A stretch of DNA of 61,790 nucleotides, counting the filler, from Globobulimina sp. (Eukaryota), in NCBI GenBank assembly GCA_003354225.1. It is 25 parts of 25 records of this genome, joined end to end, with 100 filler letters (N's around TTAATTAATTAA, not from the genome) between each part and the next. Parts side by side here need not be neighbours in the genome. Positions count along the whole stretch, not along the records: positions 24,765 to 27,140 come from PIVH01007056.1; positions 27,241 to 29,616 come from PIVH01007057.1; positions 29,717 to 32,092 come from PIVH01007058.1; positions 32,193 to 34,568 come from PIVH01007059.1; positions 34,669 to 37,044 come from PIVH01007060.1; positions 37,145 to 39,519 come from PIVH01007061.1; positions 39,620 to 41,994 come from PIVH01007062.1; positions 42,095 to 44,469 come from PIVH01007063.1; 17 more parts are not named here. One strand, given 5' to 3'. The notes beneath the pieces were generated by a model that saw only the letters and a program-made list of their open reading frames with translations, was not told where the DNA came from and did no database searches. A program made the position numbers and the translations under genes. How positions within the stretch are numbered: position 1 is the first letter of the stretch; every line of letters starts with the position of its first letter. Shown one piece after another: positions 24,904 to 46,446 of the stretch.

Positions 24904-26291
24904 ATGGCAACCTTACTATACCACACTATGGATCAAGAACCTGATCCAGAAGAATTATTTGAATTTCTGAATTGTGAGCATTGTAATGGCTCAATCAGGA
25001 TATATAAAGCAATGGATAAAAACAATTCTGAATTAGTTGCAATAAAAATAATTCCATATAACGACGATGAATACAGCAAAATTATAAAAAAAGAAATAAA
25101 AATCCAAAAACGAATACATTCGTCGTATATTACAAATATAAAAAGCGTATTCGTTAAGCATCACAATATATACATTGTAATGGATTATTGCATTGGCTCA
25201 GTTCTTGACATCATTAATATCACAAAAACAAACTTGAAAGAAAAACAAATTCAAATTATTATGAGAGAGTCGTTAACCGCATTAAAAGCGTTGCATTGTA
25301 ATCAAATAATACATAAAAACATAAAAGCAAGCAATGTAATGATAGCTATTGGAGATGAAGAGATATCCAAAGAATATAATGTCGAAATGTTAATTACCGG
25401 CTATGTCCGTGAACATTCTACAATGTACAATTGTTATATACCGAGGCAATTATTTGCATTTTTCATAGTATTTTGTCGTGAAAAGGTTAGTCTTATAAAA
25501 TTAAGTATGTCTCTTACTAATTAACTATCAGTATCATAGTGGACACCGTTTGTTTGCAGATAATTATTTATTGTTTTTTGTTAAAATAAGATTTTTCGTT
25601 ACCGATTGATGACCAACGCGCGGAGAATATAAGCAAAATTATTGATAATTCATATTGGTTGGCACCAGAAATAGTTCGTTGCAACGCAAAGCATAACGAA
25701 AAAACAGATATCTGGTCGCTCGGTATAACTGCGATTGAAATGGCAACTGGCAAAGTACCACATTGTGATAAGACTCCAATGCAGGCCTTGTTGATAAGTT
25801 CGCGTAGTTTGCCTTTGGAGTCATGTAACGAAAAATGGTCAAATTCGTTTAGGGATTTTGTGGATCAGTGTGTTGTCAAAGATCCAGCGAAAAGAGCGTC
25901 AGTTGATATGCTATTAAAACATAAATGGATTAAAAAGGCGCCTGGGAATTATGTACTGTATGATTGGATGATGAATGGTGCGAAATTATTGGATGGTTAT
26001 AATTATGATATTGGTATTGATGATGAATTTGAATTCATTGAATGGATACAGAACGAATGGAAAACTGGATCAAAAGTGGAAGTATACTCGAAGTCGTTTG
26101 ATCGTTGGTTTGTAGGAAATATCAAACGAATATTTACAGATTGCGAAGGCGAATGGCTTGAAGTAAAATATGCAGTGAATAATCTGTTGAGACTAAAACA
26201 AATACCCCGCGATGACAGTGATGCAATACGTCCATATTCAAAGGCAATGGGTGTATATCAATATATATATAATGCAATTATTAATAATTAG
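24904..26291 (+). CDS. STE20/MST-like pseudokinase with an internal insert and a C-terminal Tudor/Agenet-like domain, 2 exons
   Basis: Has DPEELF, VAIK, YWLAPE and DIWSLGITAIEMATG. The Gly loop is missing, HRD reads HKN, and DFG reads NFS after removing intron 25505-25590. C-terminus is WKTGSKVEVYS...W..G.I...EWLEVKY. Confidence 0.85.
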
Positions 26292-27240
26292 ATGAAATTA
26301 AACCAGAAGAAACTATGTTTTTCTGTGTTGAAATAAATTTTGTTATTTAATTATAAACATAGTTGCTTTCGAATTAATCAAGTTCTTTTTTTTTAATTTT
26401 TTCTGTGAAAACCTTTCAATTAGTTCTGTATACATATGTATTATTTACTGCATCTGTTTTTCATTATATCATTGCATACATGATTGATTACAATGCTTCA
26501 TTGTTGTCAGCTGTCGCAAAAATTAGTAGAATGAGTTCATAGGTGATAAGCGGACTGGATTATAGCGTTGGTTTGAGATCTGTGTATGACATATCGAAAC
26601 AATTAAAAAAAAACGAAGTTCTGAACATTTCCAAAACTTCACAAGTGTGTATCATAAAACGCATCCAAACGTATTATTTGAAACATATATTTCTAAAAAT
26701 ATTTAATATAAAAACTTGAAATGAGTTTATAGTATGAATCGGTTGAAACTGTATGATTTAAAATCACTAAGCTTTCGGCTAACGTAAAGTAGCCATTGTC
26801 AAACTGTTTAATTGAAGACTTAAAAATGTCCAATCACAAAAAACTACACACACTCAAACAACAACAATAAGAAAAGAAAACAAAAGCAAACACACGTGAA
26901 ATAATAACAAATTGAATCAAAACGATATGATTCATATTAAATACAATTGGTTGTAACAAAAATAAATAAACAGAAACAAAATCAACCAATTTGAAACAAC
27001 TAATAATAAAAATAAATATAAAACTTAAGAGGGTACAAGACCCTGGAACCCTTGGGAAAAACACTCTGCGACTGCGAGTGCAAAGATAAAAATAAAAAAC
27101 TGAAAGTAAGTACTAACTCAAAAACTTCAAAATTGAATGGNNNNNNNNNNNNNNNNNNNNNNNNNNNNNNNNNNNNNNNNNNNNTTAATTAATTAANNNN
27201 NNNNNNNNNNNNNNNNNNNNNNNNNNNNNNNNNNNNNNNN

Positions 27241-27997
27241 ATGATCATAGAGTATACCAAAAAGAAAAGTGTAAATGATCAAGCTTACAGGGACTTAACT
27301 CCTTTTTTAAACCCTTTGCCAACACAACCACAACAACAAAAAGAAATACTACATCCACCAATACACTGCAAATACGACAATAAACATAAGAAGCGCAAAA
27401 CACGTCCAACACGACAACATATTCGACAACAATTAGCGTTTAACACACCAATAAAAACACAACCGAAACCACAGAAAAAAATACATTCACAGCCACCAGC
27501 ACCAGCACAAATACAATCGCCGATGAGACAACAATCACAAATGCCGTCACAAACCCAAACACCATCGATATCAGCAAATACATTATGTAAATTCCTGGCA
27601 GGTGGTGTGTTTTTGGTTTTTCTTATTATGGCCTTGAATGCCGCCGTAATGTATGAAATTATGAAAGATAATCAAGAAACAACAACCAAATTAATACTGA
27701 CTCTCCAACAATCCATGCAAATAAATTCTTCGCTACAGCAACAAACTTTGAATTTATTTGCTGAGCAACAAAAAGAAATAAAAGAAATAATCAAACAACA
27801 ACAAAAGAGAATGGATTTACACGAATCAACACCAAAACATAAAAGAAATGATAATGAATCCATAGAATTATTATTTGTTAAGTTTTTTTTTCCGATCCAT
27901 TGAATATATAAATATGTTGAAACCAATTATTCAGATGAGAACATTGTATAAATGCATGCATTCTGAGCCATGGCAATGGAATAATAATAATAACTAA
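27241..27997 (+). CDS. Uncharacterised single-pass membrane protein (Gln/Pro-rich, TM, coiled coil), probably 5' partial
   Basis: TM FLAGGVFLVFLIMALNAAVMY. Probable intron 27877-27934 and last exon MRTLYKCMHSEPWQWNNNNN*. Confidence 0.6.
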
Positions 27998-28062
27998 TAA
28001 TTGATTCATATTTTGCTGATTTTATGGCATTATCGACAAATAAAATACATCCTTCACTCATT

Positions 28063-28145
28063 ATATTGTCAAAACTGTGGATATTTTATTTGTGGATATT
28101 GTCAAAACTGTGGATATTTTATTTGTGGATATTGTCAAAACTGTG
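28063..28145. repeat. 33-nt tandem repeat, about 2.5 copies
   Basis: Unit ATATTGTCAAAACTGTGGATATTTTATTTGTGG is repeated exactly. Confidence 0.9.
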
Positions 28146-28517
28146 GGTGACACAGACAACGGAGACACCGCAATAATCTCAGCATTTTTTTTGTAATAAA
28201 CATTCTCTTCATTTCATTTTCTTTTTTTTCTTTTGCATTGTCATCAATTTTATATTAATTATTATTATTACACATCAAAACACCAAATACAAAAACCGTC
28301 TGAATATCATATACGTATTCAGTTCCTAGTTTGGATTGCTTTAATTGTCAGTACTCGTATTTAGAAGGTTCTATTTTCAGGTTTTTAGATCCTATGAATT
28401 TGTTATCACCATCTTCCCGGTGCGCAAGGATCAATATAGCAACGAAAGTGTTGCTAGTGTTTTTATTTGTTATTTTTGATTATATTTTTTTGCATAACTA
28501 TATACTTCAAATATGGT

Positions 28518-29396
28518 TTATTCCTCTTCCTTTTCTTCTTTTTCGTCTTGATTTCCAACTTTTTTATCGTCTTTGTTTTCAATGTTTTCTTCATATTTAG
28601 CATCAAAACTGTTTACACCAAATTTATTCCTCCAAATATCAAATGCATCGTTGTTCTCATAATTGTTTCCAATCCACCAATCTTGTTTATATATATGATT
28701 CATATATTTTGCAATATGTTTATATGCAGTTTTTGGACTAAAAATATCAACATTCAATGCATTTTTGCTATGGATTATAATTGCATGTAACTTGGGTATT
28801 AATTCAATATCACATAAACATAATTTATTGCTGCCATTTAAATAAATATCAGTGTTGTCAAAGTTTGTTAAATGTAACTCCGCCAAATATCCTTCAATTC
28901 CTGACAATGATTTCTTGTATGTATCATATTTCTGTTTATTGACATGATTATTAATAACTCCATTATTGCGCGTACCAATATCTTTTGCCAATGCTATAAA
29001 ATCACCAAATATGCTTTTCCCACCAGGAATTTTATCAATATTTACATTGTTTGCAGCTAATATGGATGGTTTGTATGTGCTTTCTAAATATTTGACAATT
29101 TCGCCAGAATCAAATATACGAACTTTATTGTTTGTATCTTGTAATGTTGGCGTTGAACCTCTCCATTTATCCGTATCACCTCCAATTAAATTAAATGTTT
29201 TGTCTTTGTTTAAATCTAAAAAATATTGTGGTTTGTTTGATAAATCAATAAATTTCTTTTCAAACTTTATTCCATGTAATGATAAACATATCGCTGCTTT
29301 TTGAGTAAATGGACAGTCACCGAGTCCAGTCCCACCAATATTGCTTTTACAATAAAGAATAATGTCACATGTTGAATCTTCTTTTGCTTCAGCCAT
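28518..29396 (-). CDS. Dehydroascorbate reductase / CLIC-like glutathione transferase-fold protein
   Basis: LYCK...GLGDCPFTQK, IDLSNKPQYFLDL, DSGEIVKYLE and CDIELIPKLH. Likely start is MAEAK at 29396. Confidence 0.85.
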   Translation of the reverse strand: MAEAKEDSTCDIILYCKSNIGGTGLGDCPFTQKAAICLSLHGIKFEKKFIDLSNKPQYFLDLNKDKTFNLIGGDTDKWRGSTPTLQDTNNKVRIFDSGEIVKYLESTYKPSILAANNVNIDKIPGGKSIFGDFIALAKDIGTRNNGVINNHVNKQKYDTYKKSLSGIEGYLAELHLTNFDNTDIYLNGSNKLCLCDIELIPKLHAIIIHSKNALNVDIFSPKTAYKHIAKYMNHIYKQDWWIGNNYENNDAFDIWRNKFGVNSFDAKYEENIENKDDKKVGNQDEKEEKEEE

Positions 29397-31362
29397 TAGA
29401 CGTTCCGGAAATGTTTTCACACTCAACAGTTTTTTGTGAGATATAATCAAATAATCTTTGGCGACCATGAAGCGGTCTCGAGACATGCTGGACAATATCG
29501 ATGACATTAAGCTTCTTTTATTGGGGTGACCTTTTCATTCAATGAATAAGAAGCTATCCTGCAATGCGGAATACAGCAACAAAGAGAAAACGAAAGCGAA
29601 AGAATAATGAATCGAANNNNNNNNNNNNNNNNNNNNNNNNNNNNNNNNNNNNNNNNNNNNTTAATTAATTAANNNNNNNNNNNNNNNNNNNNNNNNNNNN
29701 NNNNNNNNNNNNNNNNAACAAAGTCAGAACAAATTTATAATTGAATTTTCGGTATACAAAGGGGGGGTTATCCAAACGGGGGGGGTGGATTTCGTTGAAA
29801 GGTTTTAACAGATACCATTAATTAATACAGAACCAATACATCATTAATCATGTACCAATTATAATATTGTTAACGAATTATTAATAGGTGTTTGTTTTTC
29901 TTCTTGTTGATTACAAGAATGTACAGATGAGCGAAATCACGTAAAGGTGTTTTGAAATGAAAGATAAATATTTACAGTTTTTTTGTCAGTCCATTTCTAA
30001 CATCCTCGACTTTCAGAGACAATAAGCTTTTAACTTACTCTGATTGCTAAAATATCAACCATTAGCAACCCATTAAAAAAATCTGACACACCAAAAACTT
30101 ACAGATGGCTGCAGCTTCGAATCAGATGGACTTACACGATCAACATACAACAGCATGGCTGGTACGTACGTATGCTTCTATTTTGTCGAACGCAAAACCC
30201 CAATTCGTATCTGTCAAACAAACCAGAGCACCACAGGCAGCCAGATATTCTTCATGCAACTCGGTAGTGCCCCTATATATATATCTCAACAACTTTAGAT
30301 ATACTTTCTGTACATACACCAAAACACAGGATTCTTATGCTACGAAGTTGGATTTGTCAAACCTGTATGGACTCAATCAGTCATTCTTAAAAACATTGAG
30401 TATCCAATTGTTTCCATCCATTGACTACGTGCAACCCCTCCAACATTCCAATCCATGCTTTTATTTATTATATATTATATTATTGTATTTTGTGTAAATA
30501 ACAATTCATTTCCGGGAAGAATATAAGAATAATTAGTACAAATCATCATATCTGAAACACAAAAAAATAAAAAAAATAAAAACAAAACTATTACAGATTT
30601 AAAACGAATGAGAGAGAATGGAAATGTCATTAATGATTCTGGCATATAACATACAACCGATACTAACTTACATATATATAATGTATAAATATTAATGACA
30701 TACAGAGTTTAATGGCGTGTAATTGTTGAGCACTTTAACAAACCTTGTTGTTTTTCAATGGGCATTGGATAATTAATTGATTGAGAAATGATTGCAAAGC
30801 ATCGTATTAATATATATAGAAACAACAAAAGAGACATAAAACAAACGGAATACATTGAGATATTACATACAAAAAAATTAAAAAGAGAAACATACAGTTT
30901 CTGTATTATTATTTATGTTTTTTAAACGAAAAAAGTCGACATCTGGATAATAAACTTAGTGCTGATATATATTTATTTAAGTTAGTATCAGATATATTTA
31001 TTATTCAGTAATGGGATGTGATGCATTGAACAGCCCCTAAATAGAACATCTGTTACAAGGCAATTGCAAATATATATAATCACAAAAAGCAGAGTGAAAT
31101 ACAATAAAATATACCAGAAATGTACCGTATGTTGAGATGCGTTTATCATTTCGATGACTGCATAGAGAGAGCACATTGGATCGGAATAAAAACATAAAAA
31201 CACAGACATACAGATGACGCATGATATTGTAACCAATCACTTGGTATATTTTATTGTATTTTGTGTGGTTAGCTGAGGCAGACTCATTTGTTTGGATACT
31301 AACAATAGAAAGTTTACGTAAATTATGTTGCAAAAAATTTTTATTTAAGAAGCAAATATTGG

Positions 31363-31832
31363 CTATTTATCATATAGAAAATATAAATTTGTTAACTGAC
31401 CATCGTCTTCGTCTTCTTCTTCTATTATCGATGCATATTTATGTACAAATATTTAATATAAATTTCGGGAAATTTCAAAATGATAAATACTTAACCGGCG
31501 AGCGCCGAGCTGCTGGAACCAAAACCAATTAAATGTGACCCATTTTCCATTGTGGAGGTGAGACTGGTGTATTTTTTTATGTTTTTTCGAGAAATTTCTG
31601 AGAATACGAATGTTTTTCATTATACGTACCTGATGGCTGAGAATACCATGCATGACGGTGTTGCGTTCATTGTTTGTGGATAGGACATTGTTATTGTTGG
31701 AGCGGATGATTGTGTGAAGGAGGAGGCAGATGCAAATCGTGTATAGTTGGAGCTGAACGAGGGTTTAAATGAGGATTGGAAGGACATTCTACGACTGGCC
31801 CCACGCAATCCATGACCCAGACGGGATTGCAT
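31363..31832 (-). CDS. Small protein with a mitochondrial-presequence-like N-terminus, weakly NFD6/NOXY2-like; multi-exon, 3' structure uncertain
   Basis: Exon 1 (31832-31630) is R/S-rich with no acidic residues. Exon 2 is 31563-31496. A micro-exon at 31421-31401 encodes EEEDEDDG. All junctions are GT-AG. Confidence 0.6.
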
Positions 31833-31928
31833 ATTTTTATGTTTATATAGCAATGAACTGTGATGTACTCACTTGTGCGATTTTGGTTGACTGTGTTTAA
31901 GTGAGGTGAAAACTATTCGGACACTAAA

Positions 31929-32092
31929 ATGACGAGAATGTTTGGTAATATTCGTCTGTTATCCACTTGGAACATATGGTGTGCGCCTTTTGGTTCAGAA
32001 TTCTTATTTCATAAACATGATCAAATTCGGAATGTTAATGATAAAAATGTACTGAAATTAATCAATGATTATAATGCAACGGATATCATAAA
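31929..32092 (+). CDS. Possible endonuclease/exonuclease/phosphatase-family protein, 5' fragment
   Basis: IRLLSTWNIW...DII resembles the EEP N-terminal strand that precedes D-x-x-x-x-QE. Truncated by the contig end. Confidence 0.4.
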
Positions 32093-32193
32093 NNNNNNNN
32101 NNNNNNNNNNNNNNNNNNNNNNNNNNNNNNNNNNNNTTAATTAATTAANNNNNNNNNNNNNNNNNNNNNNNNNNNNNNNNNNNNNNNNNNNNC

Positions 32194-34568
32194 AAAGGAT
32201 TTCCATTTCGACTTAGTTCACCCTTAGTGGATGATTCTGAAAATGGATCGATTTCACCTGCTTCGCCACTGAGCCAAGTAAACCTTTATCACACTGATAA
32301 TATATTAAACTACCAACTGCCATGCGCCAAACCATTGTTATGTAGACACGCACCAAATATAAATGAAGGCATCGAAGTGGATGGCTACAAACAAAAATTA
32401 AAAGCATTAAACTCATTATTATCGCCCATTCAATTATTTCATGAGATTGATTTAATGATAAAAAACTACCATACGCTTAAAAAAGAGTACTGTTTACAAT
32501 GGGAACTGCAGCAATTATATCGCCAACAAATCCGTTCCTTACTCAAGCAAAGTTACGCATTTATATATAAAAACAAACGTTTTTTATAAACACATTTATT
32601 TTATTTTAGAAAAAACACCACAAAACAACAACGATCATCCAATTCCACCATATTTAATGCCATTGCATGACATTGAATTATTAATTCAACGTTTACAAAA
32701 CATCCAATTTTCAATCACAGAAATCTTTCAAAATTGTTTAAACAAAAAGAAAAGCAGAAAATCGCAGAGAAACTCAAGAGTAATCTCGCCAAAAATGCAC
32801 AAAAACATCAAACCCAGCAATGTGCGGAGATTATCTGGCTGTGCCTCTGATGCATATTTATTAACAAAACGCAAAAAAACAAAATCAAAAAGAAAAACAA
32901 AACAAAATAAATACAGCGAATATGACTCTTTTTCGCCATTAAATATAACACTTCCCTACAATGTGAGGATGAGCAATCGGCGCCGTCTCAGTGTGCGTTC
33001 TTTTGGCAGTTTATATTCCGACGAATTTCGTAATTCCGTAGCCATAAATTATAAGAAACGCATGTCGTTACACGATGAGTTCAAACACCACGACGACTAC
33101 CTTGGTTTGCGGCAATTGCAAATTGTGGAATTTTACCATGATGATTACATTGGACAGCATCAAGTGTTTGAATCGCCGTTTGGTATAAGACCCATTATAT
33201 ACTGCGACTGGACCGCCTCTGGCAAACCGTTGCATTGCGTGGAGCGATATTTGTCCGCTGAGATGTTGCCTTTGTACGCCAATACGCATACAACTACCTC
33301 CATCACCGGCGTACAAACTAGTAAGTTCCGGTCGGAGGCCAGGTCCATAATATTAGAATCCGTCGGCGGTGATTGCAATGAGGACGTTATAATATTTGCA
33401 GGCAATGGCGCGACTGCAGCAATTTATAAAATGGCACATGTTTTAATGAAACAAAATGAATATACACCGTCGACAACCATTGTTTTTATATCTATTTATG
33501 AACACAATTCGAATGTATTTATTTGGAAGGAATTGGGCTGTAAAATCATTGTAATTCCAGAGAGCGATGGTTATGATTCGGGTGGCTTAGATTTGCAAAT
33601 ATTAGAAAATCATTTGCGTTTTTATACCAGTTTGCATATGAAACATAAATATAATTTATTGATTGGTACGTTTTCCGCCGCATCAAATGTGTCTGGTGTT
33701 GTCGCGCCGATTGATGAATGTACAGAGTTGCTACATCGATATAATGCGCTGTCGTTTTGGGACTATGCCACTGCGGCGCCCTATGTTCATATTAATATGA
33801 CCAATGGACAAAACCCGATGTTGTCGAAAGATGCGGTGTTTATATCGCCACATAAATGTCTGGGCGGCCCTGGATCGCCTGGTTTGTGTGCAGTATTTTG
33901 TACATATTTGTATGTTGTGTGTGTGTTGAAATCGTTTGCTTTTTTTGTAAGGAATTCTATGTGCGAAGAAAGGGCTATTTTTAAATTACACGCCGGTGGT
34001 GGCCGGCGGAGGAACGGTGTTTATAGCGTACGGTGTAGAGGATGGTGAGTGGGAATATTTGGATAATATCGAAGAAAGAGAAGAAGGCGGCACACCAAAC
34101 ATCATCGGCAGCGTTCGCGCCGCCTTTGCCTTTATGGTGAAAGATCATTTAAGCACTGAATTTATACAGCACAGAGAGCGGCAATTTTTGCAATATTTTT
34201 TGCAAGAATGTGAAAGCATTTCCAATTTGGTCATAATGGGCAATACGGACTGTGAGCGGCTTCCGGTGATATCGTTTTTGATCACACACACAAAGAAAGG
34301 CTTTGGTGCTGCCAAGAAAACAAAATATTTGCATTATAATTTTATCGCTGCGTTAATGAACGACCTGTTTGGGATACAAGGACGTGGCGGCTGTGCTTGT
34401 GCTGGAATGTACGGCAAATATGTGCTAAATATGAGTGCGGCGCAAATTGATAATGTGGTGAAACAGTTGAGACTGAGCAAGAATGAGTTGTCGCGACCTG
34501 GGTATTTTAGAATAAATCTGCATTATACGCTAAATACAAATGAGTTGAATTATATTATACATGCTATA
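32194..34568 (+). CDS. PLP-dependent class V aminotransferase / cysteine desulfurase-like protein with a long N-terminal extension; 3 exons, partial at both ends
   Basis: Motifs YCDWTASG, YANTHT, EHNSN, WDYATAAPY, SPHK (PLP lysine), REEGGTP and RGGCACAG. Introns 32552-32609 and 33882-33951. Confidence 0.9.
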
Positions 34569-34668
34569 NNNNNNNNNNNNNNNNNNNNNNNNNNNNNNNN
34601 NNNNNNNNNNNNTTAATTAATTAANNNNNNNNNNNNNNNNNNNNNNNNNNNNNNNNNNNNNNNNNNNN

Positions 34669-35160
34669 CTCTTTGTATTTGCTGCGTTGATATCTGCATT
34701 GATATCTGATGACAATTTACTTAATGCAGCTTCAATCGATGATATCTCACTGCTCTCTTCTGTTGATTCGCCATTACTGTCTGAACCTGTATCCTCGCTA
34801 AAATCTGCTTCTTCCGCAGATTCATTGTCTTCGCTTGAATTCGCCTCTTCGACATCATCATCATCGATAAAATAGTCAGTATCGGTTGAATCAACATCGC
34901 CTTCTTCGGCATCATCTAATAACTGTCGATTGGAATGGGGTAATATATTATGGTCGGCAAAGTGTGATGCATCGGTTATTGCTGTGTATGGTTATATTAT
35001 TGGAGTTCGTTTGTATGTAAAATAAGGTATGTTTGTATCTAATTTGGGTTTAATTAATTTGTGTTTAATTAATTAACGTACCGTATGTTTCAGTTTGATT
35101 TGGTTCTACATATAAAATTAGAACGAGTGCTGTTAGTATCAATGCTACCGTTGGATTCAT
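34669..35160 (-). CDS. Secreted, highly acidic (Asp/Glu/Ser-rich) protein, missed by the ORF track; 2 exons, 3' partial
   Basis: Exon 1 (35160-35082) encodes signal peptide MNPTVALILTALVLILYVEP. Intron 34982-35081. Exon 2 is open to the contig end: RQLLDDAEEGDVDSTDTDYFIDDDDVEEANSSEDNESAEE... Confidence 0.75.
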
Positions 35161-35263
35161 TTTGAGTGTCAATAGATGTGGAAGTATTGAAATATGATAT
35201 GATTGTTTAAATAATATACAGATAATCTCAGTGAGTTTGGTTAAAAAACAGCTTAAATTTTCA

Positions 35264-36724
35264 ATGGCAATGCTATTAAAACCAGAAAACGATGTTGTTA
35301 AACAAATATTTAATGTGCCAATCGAGCCAACGAAAGAATTTGCAGAGAAAATGGGTATATTAAATTAATTTGCTTGAAATGAAATGCAATGTGTTGTATA
35401 TATTTAACAAACAGACAAAGCAGATCCGTTAAAAAGGTTTCGCTCTGAATTTGAAATCCCGCCATCAATCCACGGCAATCGCTTGGAATCAATATATCTC
35501 TGCGGCAATTCATTGGGTTGTCTGCCAAAACGAGCCAAAATTTATTGCAATGAAGTATTTGAACAATGGAAAAAATATGGAGTCGAAGGCCACTTCCGAG
35601 GCAAAAGAGAGTGGGCAATAATCGATGAGGCATCGCTGACATTAATTAAACCTTTGATTGGTGCAAAAAACGAGGACGAAATAGCAATTATGAACTCATT
35701 GTCAGTCAATAATAATTTAATGTTTATCTCCTTTTATCGGCCAACCAAATCTCGCTACAAAATATTGATGGAAGGACAGGCATTTTGCAGTGATCATCAC
35801 ACAGTCCATTCCCATTTGGATTTGCATGGTTACCGCAACAAAGATGCATTGATCGAAATCAGTCCAAAAGCAAATCAACATTTAATCACAACTCAAGACA
35901 TTATCGCAAGCATTGACAAGCATAACAATTCCATCTCGTTGGTGTGGTTGGGGGCAATCCAATATTTTACGGGACAATGGTTTGACATCCAACGCATTAC
36001 AGACAAAGCGCACGAATATAATATTTACGTTGGCTTTGATTTAGATTTTGCATATATATGATGTCAACTTTGCATATAAATGAATGCCCACTGTTTAGCG
36101 CATGGAATTGGAAATATTCCGCTAAAACTACATGAATGGAACGTCGATTTTGCGACTTGGTGTTCTTACAAATATTTAAACAGTGGACCTGGCTCAATCT
36201 CCGGCATATTTGTTCACGAACGACATCATAGCAATGCATCGTTTAAGCGGCTGTGTGGATGGTGGGGACAGGAATTATTCGACAGATTCAAAATGGGACA
36301 CATTCAAGTTCCAAAAAAAGGAGCTCAAGCTTGGCAGATATCGAATCCTGCGGTGTTACCTACCGTCTGTTTACAAGCATCGCTGGAAATATTTAATGAA
36401 GCTGGAATTGACAATTTGCGATATAAATCCATTGCGTTGACTGCATATTTGGAGGAATTATTAAATAGACATTTGCATAAATATGTTTCTATCATTACAC
36501 CAAAGCAAAGGAATCAGAGAGGATGCCAGTTATCGTTGGTATTTAATAGGAATATCGAAAATATCCATAAACAAATCACTCAAAAAGGCGTTATTTGTGA
36601 CTTGCGCAAAGGCAGAGTTATGAGGGTTGCGCCAACGCCGTTGTATAACACATTTGACGATGTTTGGCAATTTGTTATGATATTAAAACACTGTTTTTAT
36701 CAACATTCAATCTCAAAACTATAA
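35264..36724 (+). CDS. KYNU: Kynureninase, complete, 3 exons (second intron non-canonical)
   Basis: Motifs YLCGNSLG, MNSLSVN, AFCSD, GFDL|AHGIGN, WCSYKYLNSGPG, GWWG and RGCQLS. Intron 1 is 35355-35414; intron 2 is 36045-36098 (AT..AG). Ends in SKL, a PTS1-type signal. Confidence 0.93.
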
Positions 36725-36835
36725 TTTAAACTTTAACATTTGCTAAATTTGAATTCGAACCTAAGTTTAGAAACGAAAAATGACCTGAAACCTCGAAACC
36801 TAAAAGTTGTTTCACTGATTCTAGCTTCAAGATCA

Positions 36836-37044
36836 ATGGATGGCTACCGAGAATCGTTGGTATTTGGGTTCATTCGGGAGTTTATAAAACAAAATAAATT
36901 CTCCATTGCCATTCCACAAGAAATTAAAAAAATAATTTGTGACTTTTTTACATCATTATGTGTCGTCATTAAAAATGGTTCAGGAACGATAAAAGCTGGA
37001 TTTTCAGGTCATAACAAGTTAAAACCAGATACTACATTCCCATC
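36836..37044 (+). CDS. Actin-related protein with an N-terminal LVFGFIRE module, 5' fragment
   Basis: CVVIKNGSGTIKAGFSG...PDTTFP matches the actin phosphate-1 loop (VIDNGSGxxKAGFAG...FP), with Lys in place of Asp. Confidence 0.8.
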
Positions 37045-37144
37045 NNNNNNNNNNNNNNNNNNNNNNNNNNNNNNNNNNNNNNNNNNNNTTAATTAATTAA
37101 NNNNNNNNNNNNNNNNNNNNNNNNNNNNNNNNNNNNNNNNNNNN

Positions 37145-37420
37145 GTGCCCCTCTTCTCTCAGCCTCTTGACTTCCTCAATGTCTAGACATGCCTTTGGCC
37201 TACCTATCGCCTTGCCCTTCGCCTTGGCACGCCTCATGCCAGCCTGAACACGCTCTCTGATCAAGTCACGTTCAAGCTCAGCCATTGAGCCTATAATGCC
37301 AAACAGCGCTCTGCCTAATGGGGTGCTGGTATCAAATCCCTCTGCGAGAGAAATAAAATCAATGTCCAGTGCCTGGAACTCATGAAGGCTGTTAACAAGA
37401 TGCTTAAGGCTCCGAGAAAA
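37145..37420 (-). CDS. Bacterial serine recombinase (resolvase/invertase) internal fragment, in a chimeric contig end
   Basis: FSRSLKHL...FISLAEGFDTSTPLGR...AELERDLIRERVQAGMRRAKAKGKAIGRP. Confidence 0.9.
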
Positions 37421-37427
37421 AACAGTT

Positions 37428-37601
37428 TCATCTCAAGCTGGCTTTTGGTTGAATTAAATTACATTCTATGCATTGCCACTCATCTTCGACGCTCATTGAT
37501 TCGTTATGTCCACATATTATGCAAATACAATTAACTGTGGATTGTGCAACTCTACAAATAGTACATTGCCATTCCCCATCGTTAATTAATTCACTTGCCA
37601 T
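37428..37601 (-). CDS. RanBP2-type zinc-finger protein, 5' fragment cut by the chimeric junction
   Basis: WQCTIC-x10-CIIC followed by a second, truncated finger WQCIEC-x10. Confidence 0.7.
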   Translation of the reverse strand: MASELINDGEWQCTICRVAQSTVNCICIICGHNESMSVEDEWQCIECNLIQPKASLR

Positions 37602-37649
37602 GTTCCATTTATGTAAAAGGGTTTTCAAAAAAGTGTATAAACAGTAAAA

Positions 37650-38693
37650 ATGCATGGCGTTCAAAAGAAGCATTTAACAGAGGAAAGAAAAAAATTGATT
37701 GCAAAGAATATCAAAATATACAAGGAACTAAATTCATTTGTGTTGCGCCAAAAACGCGCAAAGATTTACAATGAAGAAATGCTTGAGAAATGCAGTAAAG
37801 TGTTATCCATAAATTCAGAACATTACACCGTATGGAATTACAGACGTGAAATATTATTACATTTATTTGAACAGAAATACATTGACAATGCATCGGAACA
37901 ACAGAGATTACTATCAAATGAAAGTGTTGTCATAAATAAGACATTACAAAGAAATCCCAAATCATACTCGGGTTTCCATCATCGAGTTTGGTGCGTTAAT
38001 AATGACAAATTTGGTGCGATTGACTTGCACAAAGAGGTACAATTATGCTGCAACTTTTTATCATTAGATTCTCGCAACTTTCATTGTTGGGATTATCGAA
38101 GGTTTATTGTGTCGAAAGCAAATATTAAATTGAAAGATGAGCTGAAATATAGCGGCGAGTTAATTGCAAAGAATTTTAGTAATTACAGTGCGTGGCATTA
38201 TAGGTCGACATTGATACCGTTGATATGCGGGGATAATATGAAGAAATTGGCCAAGCGAATCAACAAAGAGTTGGAATTTGTGAAAAATGCATTTTATACC
38301 GAACCAAATGATCAATCTGCTTGGTTGTACCATCGGTGGTTATTAGGGAAAGACGGATATTCCATTATTTATAATGATGAGCAATCGCGGAGTAATGTGC
38401 ATAAATATGAGTTGAATTTGGATGAATTGATGCATGAATATCAAGCCATTGAGGAATTTTTAACGGTGGAACCCAAATCAAAATGGGGATTGTTGACGTA
38501 TTGTGTGTTAATTCAGGCGTTGAATCATCGCGGCAATGTAATAGATAATGCACAAGAAAAAGTTAATGATGCGTTTGGAATCTTAGTTCAAATTGATAAG
38601 ATCCGGAAAAATTATTATTTGGATGTGAAGGATGAGATAATTACACAATTAATGAATAAGAATAGTGAGGAAAAGGCGGTAAAGGATGAATGA
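37650..38693 (+). CDS. RABGGTA: Rab geranylgeranyltransferase (GGTase-II) alpha subunit, complete
   Basis: MHG start and PPTA repeats YTVWNYRR, NPKSY..FHHR, DSRNFHCWDYRR, NFSNYSAWHYRS and EPNDQSAWLYHRWL. Confidence 0.95.
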   Translation: MHGVQKKHLTEERKKLIAKNIKIYKELNSFVLRQKRAKIYNEEMLEKCSKVLSINSEHYTVWNYRREILLHLFEQKYIDNASEQQRLLSNESVVINKTLQRNPKSYSGFHHRVWCVNNDKFGAIDLHKEVQLCCNFLSLDSRNFHCWDYRRFIVSKANIKLKDELKYSGELIAKNFSNYSAWHYRSTLIPLICGDNMKKLAKRINKELEFVKNAFYTEPNDQSAWLYHRWLLGKDGYSIIYNDEQSRSNVHKYELNLDELMHEYQAIEEFLTVEPKSKWGLLTYCVLIQALNHRGNVIDNAQEKVNDAFGILVQIDKIRKNYYLDVKDEIITQLMNKNSEEKAVKDE

Positions 38694-39029
38694 TCAATAA
38701 AAATTGTAATAAAAATGCATTGAATTTTTTTTTGATGGCTCGTGTTATTTCTCGGATCGTGTACTGTGATTAAAATAAATTAATATATAAACATTTGTTT
38801 CAAAAAAATTTCAGATAGCTGTTTACAAAACTTTAAACCGTAATAATGGGCGGTTGTTGCACAGATATAGCGATCACATCGTTTTGACTTGGAAGAAAGC
38901 ATTAAAATAATTTAAATAGTTAAACCAAACCACAAACAACAAACCAAATTTAAATAGATAAACCAGGTCAAAAAAAAATGACAGACAAACAACAAACCAA
39001 AAGCAATTGGTAATATCTATCAATAAAAC

Positions 39030-39519
39030 TCATAAATTATCGGTCCATGGATGAAACACTTTAATACATGCATTTAAATATAGATCAAACTCTTCAAAAA
39101 GTTTCCATGATTCGTGATTTAATGTTATTTGATCAGAACTATCAAACTCTGTCAATCTGTTTGAAACATCACTGAAACTGTCCTCACGCCCAATTATTGC
39201 CATTGTACACCAAAAATTAAACGGTTCCGTCTTATATTCTATCAAATCATTTTTGACATTTTGTAGTTTCTCAATCTCTAAATATTTCCATTTAAATGGA
39301 TTTAAAAGAAATATATTTTCTTTCAGAAAGTGTTCTTCTTCATAAATGTGTGTATATTGCCCATAAAATGCTGTCACTTCAAATCCATCTCCATCTCCAT
39401 CTAAATTCATTTGTTTTTGAATAAAATCTTCAAAATCATACCCTTCAGAGTTATGTACAAATTGTATAATACATTTTGCTATCTCCGACTCAAAATACTC
39501 AAATTTAGATTTTTGTCCA
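39030..39519 (-). CDS. C-terminal part of an uncharacterised protein
   Basis: Open frame from near the contig edge to a stop at 39030. No motif recognised. Confidence 0.5.
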
Positions 39520-39734
39520 NNNNNNNNNNNNNNNNNNNNNNNNNNNNNNNNNNNNNNNNNNNNTTAATTAATTAANNNNNNNNNNNNNNNNNNNNNNNNN
39601 NNNNNNNNNNNNNNNNNNNATATATTATATATTAGTAAAAAAATGCGTGACATGTGCTCCATTCTATAAATATATTAGTACAACTAATATATATATTAGC
39701 ACTAATATGCGTACCTCTTATCGGGAACACTACT

Positions 39735-39950
39735 GTATCGGTCAGTGTACTACTAGTACAATACTAGTGCTGTACTAGTACTGTGCTGACATAAATGAAA
39801 TAGCAATGGAATTTGCAAGGGAATTGTGAATCAAATTTTGCATCAATAAATTTTGAAAAAGTTTGGTTCAAAATTCCCTTGCTATTTCCTTTGTGTTAGC
39901 GTAGTACTAGTGCAGCACTAGTATTGTGCTAGTAGTACACTGACCGATAC
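39735..39950 (+). repeat. Long imperfect inverted repeat (stem of about 93 bp)
   Basis: 39735-39806 pairs with 39879-39950, and 39819-39839 pairs with about 39858-39878. The arms are rich in ACTAGT. Confidence 0.9.
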
Positions 39951-40897
39951 TAGTACTGAAAACTTAAATGCAAATAGTTTAATAAGTGCTGCAATTGAAT
40001 GGTGCTCACATTCGCTTTGAGAGACAAAAATTCATTTCAAAATACTGTAAAAATATACACCAACTCAATGCGATTTTGTATTGATCGTTTCCTATTTCTT
40101 ATTTAAATAATAGTAATGTGTCTGTTTTGTGCAATGAAAAATGATCAATGATGCATGAAACAGAGGATCGACACACTAAATACCATACTTATTCGCAGTA
40201 ATCCCCACAAAGAGTTGGATTTCTTCCATACTTGAATGACATTGAATGAATTCCTTTGTTGACATTTGTTTCATCTCAGAGTTTCTGTGTGACGGATGTC
40301 AGACGTTTTTGTTGCCATTTTGTAGGGATACACCTGATTCAAGTTTTCAAACAGTTTGAAGTAACAATTTTTAAGTTAGCCATAAGTCAAAAATCATGCC
40401 AATCGATTCGCTGTGTAAAAGATACAAAAATAATTAATAAATAAATAAATAAAGGCTGTCCGTTTCTGACACACAAGGCCAGAGAGAGAGGTAAACCTCA
40501 ATTCCAAAAATGTAAACCCTAAAATAGGGGACCGTGTTACCGGTAAAGTGCAAACAACACAAAAATAAGCAAACAACATAAAAATAAGCAGAAAAAAAAT
40601 ACATATACTCATCAAAGCGGAAAATAGTGTGGCCCTCGGGTCTTATACCACTCCTTTGGAGGTTGGATGCTATTATGTACGTCTGAACTTGTACACTTTA
40701 ATCTCATACCCCAATATAGAAACAAAAACTAAAATCTCAAATCTTACTAATTATCTCATTTATTTTGTTGATTTCAACATTTATTTTGCTGTTTGCTTGT
40801 ATTTATACTTTAATTTGCATGTTTGTATACATTGTTTTCAGAAACAGTTTTTTGTTATTTATTTTGTGTTTAATATTTATTTAAACGAGTGTTTGTT

Positions 40898-41074
40898 ATT
40901 GTGAGTTTGGTGATTGAGGTCATGGTATTCGACTCGGCCTCAAACCAACTCACAATTTTTGTTACACATAATATTTATTTTAATTATGTTTGTTATATTT
41001 ATTATTTGTACTTAATATATTGTGAGTTGATAGAGGTAAAGTCATTTGACTCTGCCTGAAACTAACTCACAATA
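40898..41074. repeat. Two homologous ~57-nt stem-loops
   Basis: 40898-40956 and 41018-41074 both read ATTGTGAGTT...GAGGT...GACTC.GCCT...AACTCACAAT. Confidence 0.85.
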
Positions 41075-41120
41075 ATTATGAATAATATGAATGGCGTGTG
41101 TATTGTTTTGTGTTTATTTA

Positions 41121-41223
41121 GGGTTTTCACATATTTGTCACATATTTTACATATTTGACACGTATTTCACCATGGGAAATACGGGTCAAATACGTGAAAT
41201 ACGGGTCAAATCTGTGAAATCCC
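41121..41223. repeat. Foldback element built from ~20-nt internal repeats
   Basis: GGGTTTTCAC...CCATGG...GTGAAATCCC. The unit GAAATACGGGTCAAAT and its decayed reverse complement each occur twice. Confidence 0.8.
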
Positions 41224-41591
41224 AGATTTAATATGCTTATTGTGTGTTTGATATTTAATTTAATGTGTATTTATTAAAGTTTTAAAAGTGGAAAAGATGG
41301 ATGGAAAGTGTGGGAAAAATAGAAAATGATAATTGTGGTGTTTGGAATGAAATTTGATAGGTTTTAAAGATTTGTAATGATTGATAGATTTGGAAGAGGA
41401 AAGAGTGAGAAATATGTGAATAAATATAGGAGATGTTGAGAGTTTGAGAGAAGATATGATAGAATAAATGATGGGGAAAATGTGTGATAAGTGTTGGCTG
41501 TTTGTTTATTATTTTAATTTATTGTTTTTGTGCTCAATATAATCGCAAATAATAGATTGCTAGTTTGGTGCTATATAATAAAATAATTGTA

Positions 41592-41686
41592 ACTAGATTA
41601 GCGGTGAATTCAACTGAATTAAACAGCTGATGTGCATATCAGCTGCTTAATTCACTTGAATTCACCGAAAACATCAGCTGTCTAGT
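41592..41686. repeat. 66-nt near-perfect palindrome flanked by ACTAG...CTAGT, resembling a Helitron end
   Basis: 41602-41667 is self-complementary except at 3 positions. CTAG followed by T lies 14 nt downstream on + and 5 nt downstream on -. Confidence 0.7.
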
Positions 41687-42308
41687 GACCTAAATTATAT
41701 AGAATGCGGACAAAAACACATTCATAACTCCCATGAATATTCAATATCCAAATTATGTGCCTTTAAATATTCTTTTGAACCTACAAACTGAAACATAACA
41801 ACTGAGTCGAGGTTGTATTGAGTTCTGTGGCGGTAACTCTTGCAATTTGGTCCCGGGTGGTCCCCTCGTCTCTCTCTCATCTACACACACACTATGCAAT
41901 CAAGTATGTACACACTCTCTCTCTATTTCTATACACTCTGCACACACTAACTCTGACTTTATACACAGGACTGATCTCAGGATCAGACACTCGTNNNNNN
42001 NNNNNNNNNNNNNNNNNNNNNNNNNNNNNNNNNNNNNNTTAATTAATTAANNNNNNNNNNNNNNNNNNNNNNNNNNNNNNNNNNNNNNNNNNNNTTAAAG
42101 GAGCGGAGTGGTCGCATGTCTAGGCGTCCTTTATTGCAATATCATTGTACCAAGGTACTAGGTCTCAATTTATATTGCGCAATATAAGAACCCCCAACGT
42201 TTGCAACGTCCAAAGTACAAAGTAATTGGCCTAGCTATATAGCGTTTAAACGAACAAATTAAACTTTTTTAAATTGGTAAGACATTTATTTCAATTTATG
42301 TTATCCAG

Positions 42309-43085
42309 TTACCATGGTTTTGGATATAATCCGTCTTCATCGTGAATGCCATTCATTGCAAACAGTACAATGTCAGTAATCCACCAAACAAACATAGCAA
42401 ATCTCAGTATATAATAAATATATTCTCCACAAAGAGCTGAAGCCATAATTCCCGTGTTTTCTTCGGGCGTAACAACTCCGTCCGATGCTGCACTCGCTGC
42501 GGTTGTGCATGGTATCAATATTGGTAAACAACACGCCATTAACAACAATACCAATTTTAATGAGCCTCCAATATATTCGCCAACATAAAATCTAAATATA
42601 TATATTATGACAACACAACGCTGTATACGTATATATCACGTATGTGCATATATATACCTTCCGAACCCCAATGGCCCCAAAAACAATGATAATAAAAACG
42701 CAGTAAGTTGTCTCCTATCCGAATATTTCTCTTCCTCATCAGAGTCAGTATCTGTGTCTGTATCCATATCCTCACCATCCATCCTATTATCATAGCCAAA
42801 TAGTGCAGGAAATACATGTTTGCTCCAATAATATGGTGGGTATTTATGAACACCATACCGATTTCCATTATTATCTTCGTTTATCATATCATATATATCA
42901 TAATGTTGCTGTCTTTTGGAGGCAAAATGTCCATTACCTTTGAATTTAAATGTTTTCGTTTGATTTACAAATAAATGTAAGTATTATGTACTTGGAGAGC
43001 GTCTATTTGACCGATGAATACTGTATCCGTTTACAACATGAATAATATATCCTACAATAAAAATCCAAAGGTACCAGTTTGACAT
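42309..43085 (-). CDS. TM2-domain protein, complete, 3 exons
   Basis: Signal peptide MSNWYLWIFIVGYIIHVVNG. Exons 43085-42992, 42937-42658 and 42591-42309. Reads RQLTAFLLSLFLGPLGFGR|FYVG...WWITDI...KPW. Confidence 0.88.
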
Positions 43086-43163
43086 GTTTCAAAGATGTAT
43101 TTTATACAAAAAACATTTCAGTTAAAAACCATGTATGCACATTCATTCTAATAACATACAATC

Positions 43164-44447
43164 ATGTGTCTGTGCAGAAAGCGACCATGTTGTCGTTGCA
43201 TCTGGAAACGATGCACATTCTGCGCTTACAATATCTTCAGCATTCGTGTGTTATTACTCTTATTTTGCATGATTGACATAATTATTATGTTATGGTATTT
43301 ATACGCATTGGAAGAATCCCGAAATAGCATCACAAACTGTTGCAGCGTTTCCAACAATAATTATCCTTCACCAACAATAAATAATACAGCCCTAATATCC
43401 AATTATTCGACATGTTCCAATCTAGATTACTCAAACACGATAATCTCCTCTTATCTCGACATTGTAGCTCCATTTAACCACAAACCAAACTTGATAACAA
43501 ATCTCCGACATTATAAATGGGACAAATTCAAATCTATATTCACGTATTACTCCATAAACATCACAATACATCGCAACGGAGGCTGTGTATACAATGATTT
43601 TGATGCTTACCATGACATAAATTGCTTATCCAACACAGCAATGCCTTGCATACAATATGTACGTCTCTACAATCCATGTAATTGAGAGAGAATACCTACG
43701 CCGACCTATATATATATACACAGATAAACCACAGCATAGCAAATGCTACAAACACTGCGTTGAGTGCACTCTGTCAGGATAACATAAGTGAGGACGAGAT
43801 CGCATACATACAATTCGGAATATTAATGATAATCATATCTAAAATATTATTAATATTCATAAGTATTTGTTGCAAGGTCTGTCGTCAAGAGATCCGTCCC
43901 GAAGATGAATACATTCGTAACCTATTACGTCCAGCCTATATACCTTCGTTTATGCAGCAACGCATTGAGCATAAACGGAGGCAGACACAGGCATTGTTGC
44001 ACCGATTGAAGCGTATCGACAGCACACCAAATACGGACAGACGTAGCGAGAAATCAGAGACCATTGACATGGGCGCCAAATCGTATTATGTATACTACCG
44101 AATGGAGGACAGAAGAAAGAACAGAAACATTTGCTGCAAGTTAATGTATGCGGTTTGCCATTTGTTGGAACTTATTGTCTTGTTTGTGATTTATTTGTAT
44201 AAATTGATCAAATGGTTGATTAAAACCTCATTTTGGATCATTTTATTGATTATAAACTGTATCTGTTCCATGCGTTTGTTTTTCATTTATCACTCTCCAG
44301 TTTTTGGTGTGGATGATGTCGATTTTTGTACGCAGCAAAGTCAGACATGTGATATTGCGCAGAATCAGTGCGGTGTGGTGAATTGGATCATTTTGCCACA
44401 TATTTCAAAGTATTTATTGCCGCGATATATTACAATTATTTTCTCGC
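43164..44447 (+). CDS. Uncharacterised multi-pass membrane protein with a Cys-rich, N-glycosylatable loop; 3' partial
   Basis: Intron 43659-43723 joins the two ORFs in frame. There are at least 3 hydrophobic helices and a probable donor GTTAAG at 44448. Confidence 0.7.
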
Positions 44448-45162
44448 GTTAAGTATATACAAAATAAATNNNNNNNNNNNNNNNNNNNNNNNNNNNNNNN
44501 NNNNNNNNNNNNNTTAATTAATTAANNNNNNNNNNNNNNNNNNNNNNNNNNNNNNNNNNNNNNNNNNNNTTGGTTTATTTTTTATTCGTGTATTTGCTTT
44601 TTGTATGTTTATAGGCTAAAGAGATATTATATAAATAAGATGATATCTGTACGTCCTATATTTAATGTGTTTTCTTTGAATTAATTATTTTCTTCAGAAA
44701 AAGTTTTAACAATTGAACAGTAATCAAAACTTTCAAAACAGTAATCCAAAAAGTGGGTAGTACACACGCTTGGCATACGTTTGAACACTCTCCTACATAA
44801 GCATGAGGGCCCACAGGTACGCTACTCTACGCCCAAATTGAACCCTTCCATAAATAATCGTGCTATGATTAACACCTCTCTATCTCTCTAGTACAGTAAT
44901 CCATATTTTGCATGATATCTTTGTATGTTATTTGAAATTATGGTATACACAAAAGGCCACGAAACGACGGATTATTTATGGAAACATACAAATTATAGAT
45001 TGTCTATAATCTGAATTATCTAAACCCGTGTATCAAATTGGAAACCAATCACTCCAAACCAATCTACAGGGGAAAGTATACGGTTATAAAGAACATACAA
45101 TTAAATATAATATAATTTAAATGTAAACAAAATCAATGATCGTCAAACGAATCAAATATTAA

Positions 45163-46446
45163 TCAGTCGGAATAAAACGACAATACCATATCTTTTAAAT
45201 CACCAAAGGTTAATTTATTTCCCTCAATTTGTTCCCTAATAAATCCATATACCAACATCTTATCATTACTCATCATTTCATCAATTTTTATTCTTAGCTC
45301 CTTTGGTGACACATCATATAAATCAATTATATCATGAAAACAATTTCCATAATAATGCGCATATCTACCTTCTGTAGAAACATATGATTTTCCTTGAACT
45401 TCAAGAAAATAGTTTGGGACTTTTTTTCCCGAAATATACCATTTCTTATCAACAACATCCAAACAACGTATTTCAACCACTCCCTGATTTAAGTGATTTT
45501 CAACAAACAAATAAATAATAAATCCAAATCCTGCAACAATAGCACTGTGCTTAATATTTGTTCTCAATCTATCTGGCCACATAAACCCATTTTCCTTTTC
45601 CCAGCATGCTTCAGGTCCTTTGCTTAAATCTAACGAACATACACTCTGTGAATAAAGATCCAAAACAATAAATTTATTGATTGCTCCAATGTATACACAA
45701 TGAGCGGGATAAAAATCGTCTCCGTACTCACCTCCATAAGCTTGTAACATGCAAGCATTATTGGATAATTCTACAAATGCACATTGATCAAAATCAAAGA
45801 TTGCATGATGACCACCTTCAGCATTCACGTAAATACAATGTGCTGTTCCATTCACAAAATGCAACCGAGGATACCATATTCCTTCGACACGTGGTTTATT
45901 TGGTTGTAGAACATTCGTCATAACATTCCATTGCTTAGTCTTCAAATCTAATGTTATTATATCATGCGTCCGCATTTCACAATTTATCTCTTCCAATTGT
46001 TGATCATAAGAGTGCATTGTACTGAATATATACAACTTATCATGTTTAGTATCAATAAAAGTTCCTACACTTCCTGGCATTCCGAACATATAATTTTCCT
46101 TCATGTCTGCCAACGGCTTAGGCATTTTAGCAAATTCATTCATTTCGTTGTTTTGAACATCGTATGCGAACACACTATTTATTGTTATAAAGAGAAGATA
46201 ATTCTTCTTTGAATGCAAAGGTCTATAATATATTTTATCCCATTCTCCGATAGGATGATATTCTGCGAATATAAGTTTCGCACGTGGTTCTACCCACTTT
46301 TTCACCGCTTTACAATATTTTTTATGATGGCTCCAAGCCTCTGCTTGACACGTCTGGTTGCAATACCACACTCTGTTGCAAGCACTACATCGAAGAGTGG
46401 CGTTGGGTTTGTAGTTACATCTAAAATTTGCACAGCGTGAAGGCAT
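45163..46446 (-). CDS. MYND zinc finger plus kelch-like beta-propeller plus C-terminal LVYGFIRE module, complete
   Basis: CANFRC...RCSACNRVWYCNQTCQAEAWSHHKKYC is a MYND finger. Kelch-like blades end in LDLKTKQW, LDLSKGPEACW and LDVVDKKW. Confidence 0.85.
   Translation of the reverse strand: MPSRCANFRCNYKPNATLRCSACNRVWYCNQTCQAEAWSHHKKYCKAVKKWVEPRAKLIFAEYHPIGEWDKIYYRPLHSKKNYLLFITINSVFAYDVQNNEMNEFAKMPKPLADMKENYMFGMPGSVGTFIDTKHDKLYIFSTMHSYDQQLEEINCEMRTHDIITLDLKTKQWNVMTNVLQPNKPRVEGIWYPRLHFVNGTAHCIYVNAEGGHHAIFDFDQCAFVELSNNACMLQAYGGEYGDDFYPAHCVYIGAINKFIVLDLYSQSVCSLDLSKGPEACWEKENGFMWPDRLRTNIKHSAIVAGFGFIIYLFVENHLNQGVVEIRCLDVVDKKWYISGKKVPNYFLEVQGKSYVSTEGRYAHYYGNCFHDIIDLYDVSPKELRIKIDEMMSNDKMLVYGFIREQIEGNKLTFGDLKDMVLSFYSD

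Follow-up and report, generated by a model that had tools for sequence, protein, structure and literature searches.

To our knowledge, only a few docking boxes of cullin ligases are known, namely the F-box, the SOCS/VHL box, BTB and the H-box. The available text of PMC12816148 offers a precedent for other arrangements, in that trypanosome cullins use novel Skp1 paralogues together with Kelch or leucine-rich repeat (LRR) receptors that have no F-box. The present study concerns a 61,790-nucleotide stretch of DNA from Globobulimina sp. (assembly GCA_003354225.1; hereafter the window), made up of 25 contigs of ~2.4 kb each joined by N-spacers and drawn from a source assembly of 70 Mb in 48,370 contigs, in which a degenerate kinase, an actin-like protein and a MYND-finger protein share a short two-helix module. 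This module is an undescribed domain that is probably F-box-like in its action. More specifically, and at a little under an even chance, we favour the reading that it would serve as the F-box equivalent for a remodelled Skp1 paralogue in a second, foraminiferal ubiquitin ligase resembling the Skp1-cullin-F-box (SCF) type. As in the trypanosome TbCul-E, -F and -G complexes, there are extra Skp1 and cullin paralogues and Kelch-type receptors without an F-box; those complexes, however, were purified and no common docking box is named in the available account (PMC12816148), whereas the foraminiferal box is defined and occurs in hundreds of copies, and its complex is a putative one. New here is the candidate partner of the module, a Skp1 paralogue with a remodelled F-box-clamping C-terminus.

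The three copies are genuine and in frame. The core pattern [LIVM]xxG[FY][IVLM]R has exactly three matches in the six-frame translation of the window, which are the three copies (table 1), and the translations agree with the peptides given in the original prediction. Profile A2, an alignment of 54 copies that includes the actin and MYND copies and excludes the kinase copy, scores its two members from the window at 48.5 bits (actin) and 29.1 bits (MYND); the MYND copy also reached 16 bits against an earlier seed that did not contain it. The kinase copy is the weakest of the three, scoring as a nonmember 9.7 bits (E 0.26) in a match that covers helix 1 and the IP only. It is exonic because public sequencing runs skip the adjoining intron and leave the motif outside it, two of the three skipping runs being one sample and a fourth run reading through the intron; the RNA status of the runs with the kinase contig is the tool's guess, none of those listed being recorded as RNA. 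A fourth candidate, proposed as a weaker copy interrupting an RCC1 protein, was not accepted, having a plausible second helix, no A2 match and no G[YF]IR.

The claim that the module belongs to a large, position-independent family was borne out. Scanning the genome with the back-translated core pattern gave 549 matches against 219 for the reversed control, and as the strict pattern recovers 128 of the 165 copies in the outside representatives, the family comprises ~425 copies in this genome as a rough lower figure. The 90 loci examined were drawn from the first 100 of the 549 places, several near-identical RCC1-family places being omitted; among the 87 pattern matches in these loci and the window, 68 lie in open frames of at least 85 residues and 46 have the second half of the module. 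A wider search with a profile made from the copies matched 760 of 1.84 billion protein representatives at E up to 0.001. Species labels, available for 7 of the 14 motif-bearing representatives that were looked up, were all Nonionella or Bolivina, and the module is likely restricted to foraminifera. Of 167 profile matches, 130 fall in the N-terminal 60 residues, 12 near the C-terminus and 25 at internal positions, and some proteins have two or more copies. The consensus consists of L[VI]xG[YF][IV]R, a loop of 5–15 residues and IPx[DE]Ixx[LI][CI]xx[FY]Y, the invariance of G and R in A2 being partly imposed by the pattern; near-duplicate RCC1 copies and short fragments were left out of that alignment. 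For a 38-mer from the actin copy, helices are predicted at residues 2–18 and 26–37, with a predicted local distance difference test (pLDDT) score of 82.

Searches against NCBIfam gave no family match and five scattered single-member hits, a word-indexed homologue search with the short profile returned 3 proteins only, and the ESM Atlas gave a best score of 0.88 and no usable match, which indicates neither novelty nor absence. No account of the module or of a foraminiferal Skp1 paralogue was found in literature titles and abstract openings, and supplements to genome papers could hold one. Whether or not the ligase link holds, the module constitutes a real domain family that Pfam and NCBIfam do not contain. 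One RCC1 gene family carrying the module has recently expanded, with near-identical module DNA and some stop-truncated members (L028, L033, L034, L087, L096, L097 and more).

Position-independent, in-frame insertion into housekeeping genes could also be the mark of a translated selfish DNA element, of which the Rickettsia palindromic elements are an in-frame example. This candidate was rejected, being largely refuted by codon-position, folding and repeat tests, and we consider it almost certainly wrong. Pairwise identity among the 54 copies at codon positions 1, 2 and 3 is 0.44, 0.52 and 0.36 against expected values of 0.27, 0.30 and 0.30; third positions are near background and conservation is therefore at the protein level. 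Gly, Arg and Leu are each encoded by the full set of their synonymous codons. The mean z for folding is -0.09, direct and inverted repeats in the flanks are at control level, and the 54 copies gave no signal of a hairpin, a target-site duplication or terminal repeats.

Pfam scans of Globobulimina open reading frames (ORFs) and of outside representatives indicate that hosts carry mainly typical substrate-binding folds. Half of the 60 module-bearing ORFs have a Pfam match (three of these 30 ORFs lie in the frame or contig that follows the module), and 19 of the matched ORFs are Kelch (6), RCC1 (6), SPRY (5) or TLDc (2) proteins. The others include actin (2), ubiquitin-like (2) and single cases of Ras, PP2C, myosin head, formin FH2, discoidin, a PARP-type zinc finger with SAP, and a DnaJ-type zinc finger. 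Among 150 outside representatives, 46 have a match and the same four folds account for 33 (SPRY 17, Kelch 8, TLDc 5, RCC1 3), followed by kinase (2) and 11 other hosts including tubulin, RasGEF and CAP-Gly, two of them probably spurious. Many hosts are proteins of ~210 residues consisting of the module and one SPRY domain.

Hosts were also expected to have lost catalytic residues, as housekeeping folds reused for substrate binding might. Such decay is common, being present in both window enzymes and in kinase P0126, and the substitutions first reported for the window kinase and actin are as described, that at the kinase DFG site being read through the splice join. As a general rule it is not supported: the catalytic Cys is retained in three of four module-bearing ubiquitin-conjugating (E2) enzymes versus 35 of 53 without the module, and DNG in most module-bearing actins with a readable N-terminus (e.g., L201, L205, L207). 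In one E2 (L189:481-1572, minus strand) Asp stands in for the catalytic Cys, and downstream come the module and a ubiquitin-like domain. Actin paralogues L201, L205 and L223 share one insertion site for the module, an internal loop close to the C-terminal third. Retained catalytic residues in many hosts, and insertion in surface loops of actins, kinases and E2s that are otherwise nearly intact, would suit a degron or regulatory tag marking its own host for turnover. We regard this as very unlikely, as the many ~210-residue proteins with a SPRY domain have the layout of receptors, and a two-helix unit of 35 residues is long for a degron.

From its sequence, the module appears to be neither an F-box nor a SOCS box, despite the resemblance of one half to an F-box. 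In Pfam scans, F-box and F-box-like models matched none of the 54 members at E up to 10 and none of the 150 representatives at E up to 0.001, and no member of either set matched the SOCS or classic LisH models. A profile search of PDB sequences gave no match at E up to 10, and a fold search with the 38-residue two-helix model gave nothing above background (best Foldseek E 4.6, best Z 4.8), the model being too small to discriminate. The suggestion that the second half resembles the start of an F-box did hold in an hhalign comparison with 23 F-boxes of this genome, in which helix 2 alone aligns, with F-box helix 1 (probability 48.5, 17 columns, pairwise E 1.8e-4), as a weak match to LPx[DE][LI]xxxIFx[FY]L. 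Like the F-box (PF00646/PF12937), the module is a short helical box, mostly N-terminal, on SPRY, Kelch, RCC1 and other binding domains, with a Pro-capped helix bearing hydrophobic residues at P, +3, +7 and +10. It differs in that this helix comes second, after the LVxG[YF]IR helix, and in its additional C-terminal and internal positions. F-box helices 2-3 with VC[KR]xW are absent after the module, whereas the F-boxes of the same genome, a separate set, have V in 83%, C in 65% and W in 48%.

The layout of helix, variable loop and Pro-capped second helix, at either end of the host, is shared with the SOCS/VHL box, and a divergent box of that type binding Elongin C has been considered. The BC box has the consensus [STP]LxxxCxxx[VIL], and its Leu/Cys pair is absent from the helix 1 column frequencies. 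No SOCS box over cut-off was found in this genome, which does encode an Elongin A (L345, G000:C10378:101-1198, minus strand) whose BC box is regular and looks different from the module. Elongin C therefore probably exists as well, and was not found among 4 Skp1_POZ matches or 27 protein matches in this fragmentary assembly; nor was a clear Cul2/Cul5-type cullin seen among those examined (L148 alone was compared with the PDB). We judge a SOCS/VHL-type box to be about as unlikely as a degron. The proposal that helix 1 is an H-box-like, DDB1-binding helix recruiting a Cul4 ligase seems if anything still less probable. We presume a likeness of LVxG[YF]IRE to the short helices of DCAFs, a comparison unsupported by any result, and a Cul4-like fragment (L136) was recognized by reading; a WD40 match, on the other hand, occurs in only 1 of 150 representatives, and the PDB search is negative here too.

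It is also possible, though unlikely, that the module docks elsewhere, either dimerizing with itself in the manner of LisH (PF08513) or anchoring its hosts to one scaffold or compartment. The two helices are amphipathic, one of the 54 members has a weak LisH_TPL match (E 0.029), the helix 1 hydrophobic spacing is similar to that of LisH when read by eye, motors, formin, tubulin, actin and CAP-Gly proteins are among the hosts, and some module proteins have at least two copies. Against this stand the variable loop and the conserved Pro, and a profile comparison with LisH motifs of this genome gave a probability of 2.9, on 5 LisH sequences only. Moreover, self-association or scaffolding predicts neither the fusions with Skp1 described below nor the absence of the module from F-box and BTB loci.

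Alongside a canonical Skp1 (L100), the genome encodes a Skp1 paralogue, L099 (G000:C37101:149-706, plus strand), which aligns with Skp1 as far as helix 6 and differs from it beyond that point, lacking the helix 7-8 linker. Skp1 helices 5-8 form the F-box interface, 5-7 as its core and helix 8 as a variable part, in the available text of PMC12101541. L099 matches Skp1_POZ (2.7e-8) and 33 PDB sequences, all Skp1, and the Skp1 C-terminal domain PF01466 is detected in neither L099 nor P0263, against 6e-29 in the canonical L151. The paralogue is 79-95% identical among its top matches, the named records being from Globobulimina, Ammonia, Elphidium, Bolivina and Nonionella. The expanded Skp1 family, obtained by a genome search with L099 that gave 27 matches representing 18 loci, has two noncanonical C-termini: type A has lost the linker that joins helices 7 and 8, and type B stops after helix 7.

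In nine of the 18 Skp1-family loci (eight by pattern, one by profile) the module directly precedes the Skp1-like domain. These fusions include one with the module in an adjoining frame (L162), are preceded by SAM, UBA or PH-like domains (PH by eye), and fall in at least two Skp1 subclades. Modelling of a fusion relative gave a structure similar to Skp1 chains. In other data sets, nine of ten long relatives have the module-Skp1 layout by eye, four of the nine by pattern or profile; among metagenome loci it was found by pattern in 2 of 50. In P0288, a single chain, the module and a Skp1 paralogue come after an Rpn13-type ubiquitin-receptor domain (PF04683). L164 (234-938, minus strand) encodes a Skp1 with a canonical C-terminus and a Trp-type module variant in its POZ domain, suggesting a W-subfamily missed by the profile. 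A uniform relaxed pattern, which recovers 137 of the 150 representatives with at most 0.5 matches after shuffling, gave 8/18 loci for the Skp1 family, 7/67 for E2 and 5/30 for actin, and none for F-box (0/30), BTB (0/29) and cullin (0/7). When matches in the own ORFs were combined with profile matches, the rates were 9/18 for Skp1, 6/67 for E2 and 6/30 for actin; Skp1 differs from E2 (p 0.0003), and F-box plus BTB (0/59) from E2 plus actin (12/97; Fisher p 0.004). As 37 scanned F-box and BTB ORFs include one with SPRY and none with Kelch, RCC1 or TLDc, the receptor domains seem to be on the module instead, although the contigs are short.

The same data bear on a further alternative, in which the module, as a permuted minimal F-box, would bind canonical Skp1 and Cul1 and have no connection with the paralogue. 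The resemblance of helix 2 to F-box helix 1, the presence of canonical Skp1 and the position of the Trp-type variant in a Skp1 with a canonical C-terminus agree with this idea. We nevertheless consider it distinctly unlikely, since canonical F-boxes already exist in the genome (88 matches, 42 over the Pfam cut-off) and all nine counted fusions are on paralogue-type or degenerate Skp1 domains.

Seven cullin loci include a close group of four, three at 59-62% and one fragment at 40-53%. A divergent cullin (L150, G000:C1965) has a C-terminal exon that runs into a ubiquitin-like domain. Complex prediction for the module with L099, made without the custom alignments, gave 0.85-0.86 in three runs against controls of 0.77, 0.02 and 0.02, and counts neither way on binding. 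In the AlphaFold model of the natural fusion L154 the Skp1 part is confident and helix 1 of the module is unfolded (pLDDT ~51), so that packing cannot be judged from it.

We tentatively favour an F-box-equivalent role in conjunction with the Skp1 paralogue because helix 2 aligns with F-box helix 1, hosts carry binding domains and the paralogue is conserved, and because the module is fused to Skp1-like domains and absent from F-box, BTB and cullin loci in a genome with a paralogous cullin group. The idea of a portable tag that would bind a Cullin-RING adaptor is partly supported, with a plausible Skp1-family candidate partner that has module fusions. Under such a mechanism, helix 2 (IPxxIxxxCxxFY) would take the place of F-box helix 1 on Skp1 helices 5-6, and helix 1 (LVxGYIR) may replace the missing F-box helices against the remodelled Skp1 C-terminus. 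The attached domain would pick the target, be it SPRY, Kelch, RCC1, TLDc or a duplicated actin, kinase, Ras or E2 acting as bait, and the module-Skp1 fusions would be one-chain adaptor-receptors.

Several points weigh against this role. The likeness to the F-box is weak, the hhalign probability falling to 15.0 with a wider alignment. Many housekeeping families are fused to the module (6/30 actin, 6/67 E2 loci), and Skp1 may therefore be one more bait; the fusion rate of Skp1 differs from that of actin at p 0.05 only. The relaxed pattern was written after the Skp1 fusions had been seen, and with profiles built without them the rates at 8 bits or more are 5/18 for Skp1, 4/30 for actin and 4/67 for E2 (A2) and 4/18 for Skp1 (another profile). 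Most fusions have a common upstream 'GYC' block and the tree requires only 2-4 changes; the fusions thus stem from few events and the p-values overstate the case. The query used to find relatives in other data sets itself held the module, which favours fusions. The counts cover the best 30 of 88 F-box matches, 29 loci from 62 BTB matches and 30 loci from 116 actin matches, on short contigs, and by our estimate roughly 1-2% of genes carry the module, at which rate 0/59 is unremarkable. Truncated Skp1 paralogues resembling type B were also seen in metagenome loci that are more distantly related (L339-L344), and Skp1 paralogues can have non-SCF roles, as stated in the available portions of PMC12101541 and PMC12816148.

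With still less assurance, we can envisage a second SCF-like system that outnumbers the canonical F-boxes several-fold, in which box, Skp1 paralogue and cullin group might have co-evolved, duplicates of actin, tubulin, myosin, kinase, Ras and E2 carrying the box would act as baits, delivering their usual partners for ubiquitination, and the Skp1 fusions would be one-chain adaptors. If true, a further docking box with hundreds of copies per genome would mean that a lineage can reinvent the receptor-adaptor interface, and would give a function to the ~1-2% of foraminiferal genes concerned that are now unannotated, including odd actin and tubulin paralogues. Foraminiferal cells are known for their unusual cytoskeletons. 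With a candidate partner named, the idea is testable with two small recombinant proteins.

Table 1. Module copies and host genes in the window.
Feature	Position	Strand	Remarks
Exon 1 of degenerate kinase	24904..25504	+	Pkinase 4e-21; AIK lysine retained; HKN at HRD site; module is an insert
Module copy 1	25387..25476	+	Between kinase catalytic loop and DFG position; canonical helix 1 and IP, with a divergent helix 2
86-nt GT..AG intron of kinase gene	25505..25590	+	Joint in contigs of 3 of 4 public runs; NFS at DFG site after splicing
Exon 2 of kinase	25591..26291	+	C-lobe, Pkinase 2.1e-17; APE and DxWSxG retained; weak Agenet/Tudor-like tail
Start of actin-like gene	36836..37044	+	KNGSG replaces DNGSG; continues on G000:C19825 (L003)
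Module copy 2	36854..36949	+	N-terminus of actin-like protein; near consensus
427-aa protein	45163..46446	-	MYND finger, probable Kelch-type propeller, C-terminal module
MYND zinc finger (residues 8-45 of 427-aa protein)	46312..46425	-	Pfam zf-MYND 7e-9
Module copy 3	45172..45258	-	Extreme C-terminus of MYND/propeller protein; without the Pro
Possible degenerate copy in RCC1 protein	18521..18607	+	Helix 2 pattern present, G[YF]IR absent; unproven

The end of the actin contig overlaps its continuation by 119 identical bases, and the rest of the ORF there is actin-like (Pfam Actin 1.6e-107). The propeller of the MYND protein gave a weak Kelch match only (E 0.047). The kinase, which we take to be STE20-like, ends in the Agenet/Tudor-like tail at 26060-26291 (plus strand; E 0.051). 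A presumed kynureninase-like gene (35408-36721, plus strand) ends ~115 bases ahead of the actin-like gene. Two bacterial-looking ORFs, presumably resolvase-like (37145-37432, minus strand) and M16-peptidase-like (14861-15181, plus strand), begin otherwise eukaryotic contigs and may reflect chimeric assembly or contamination.

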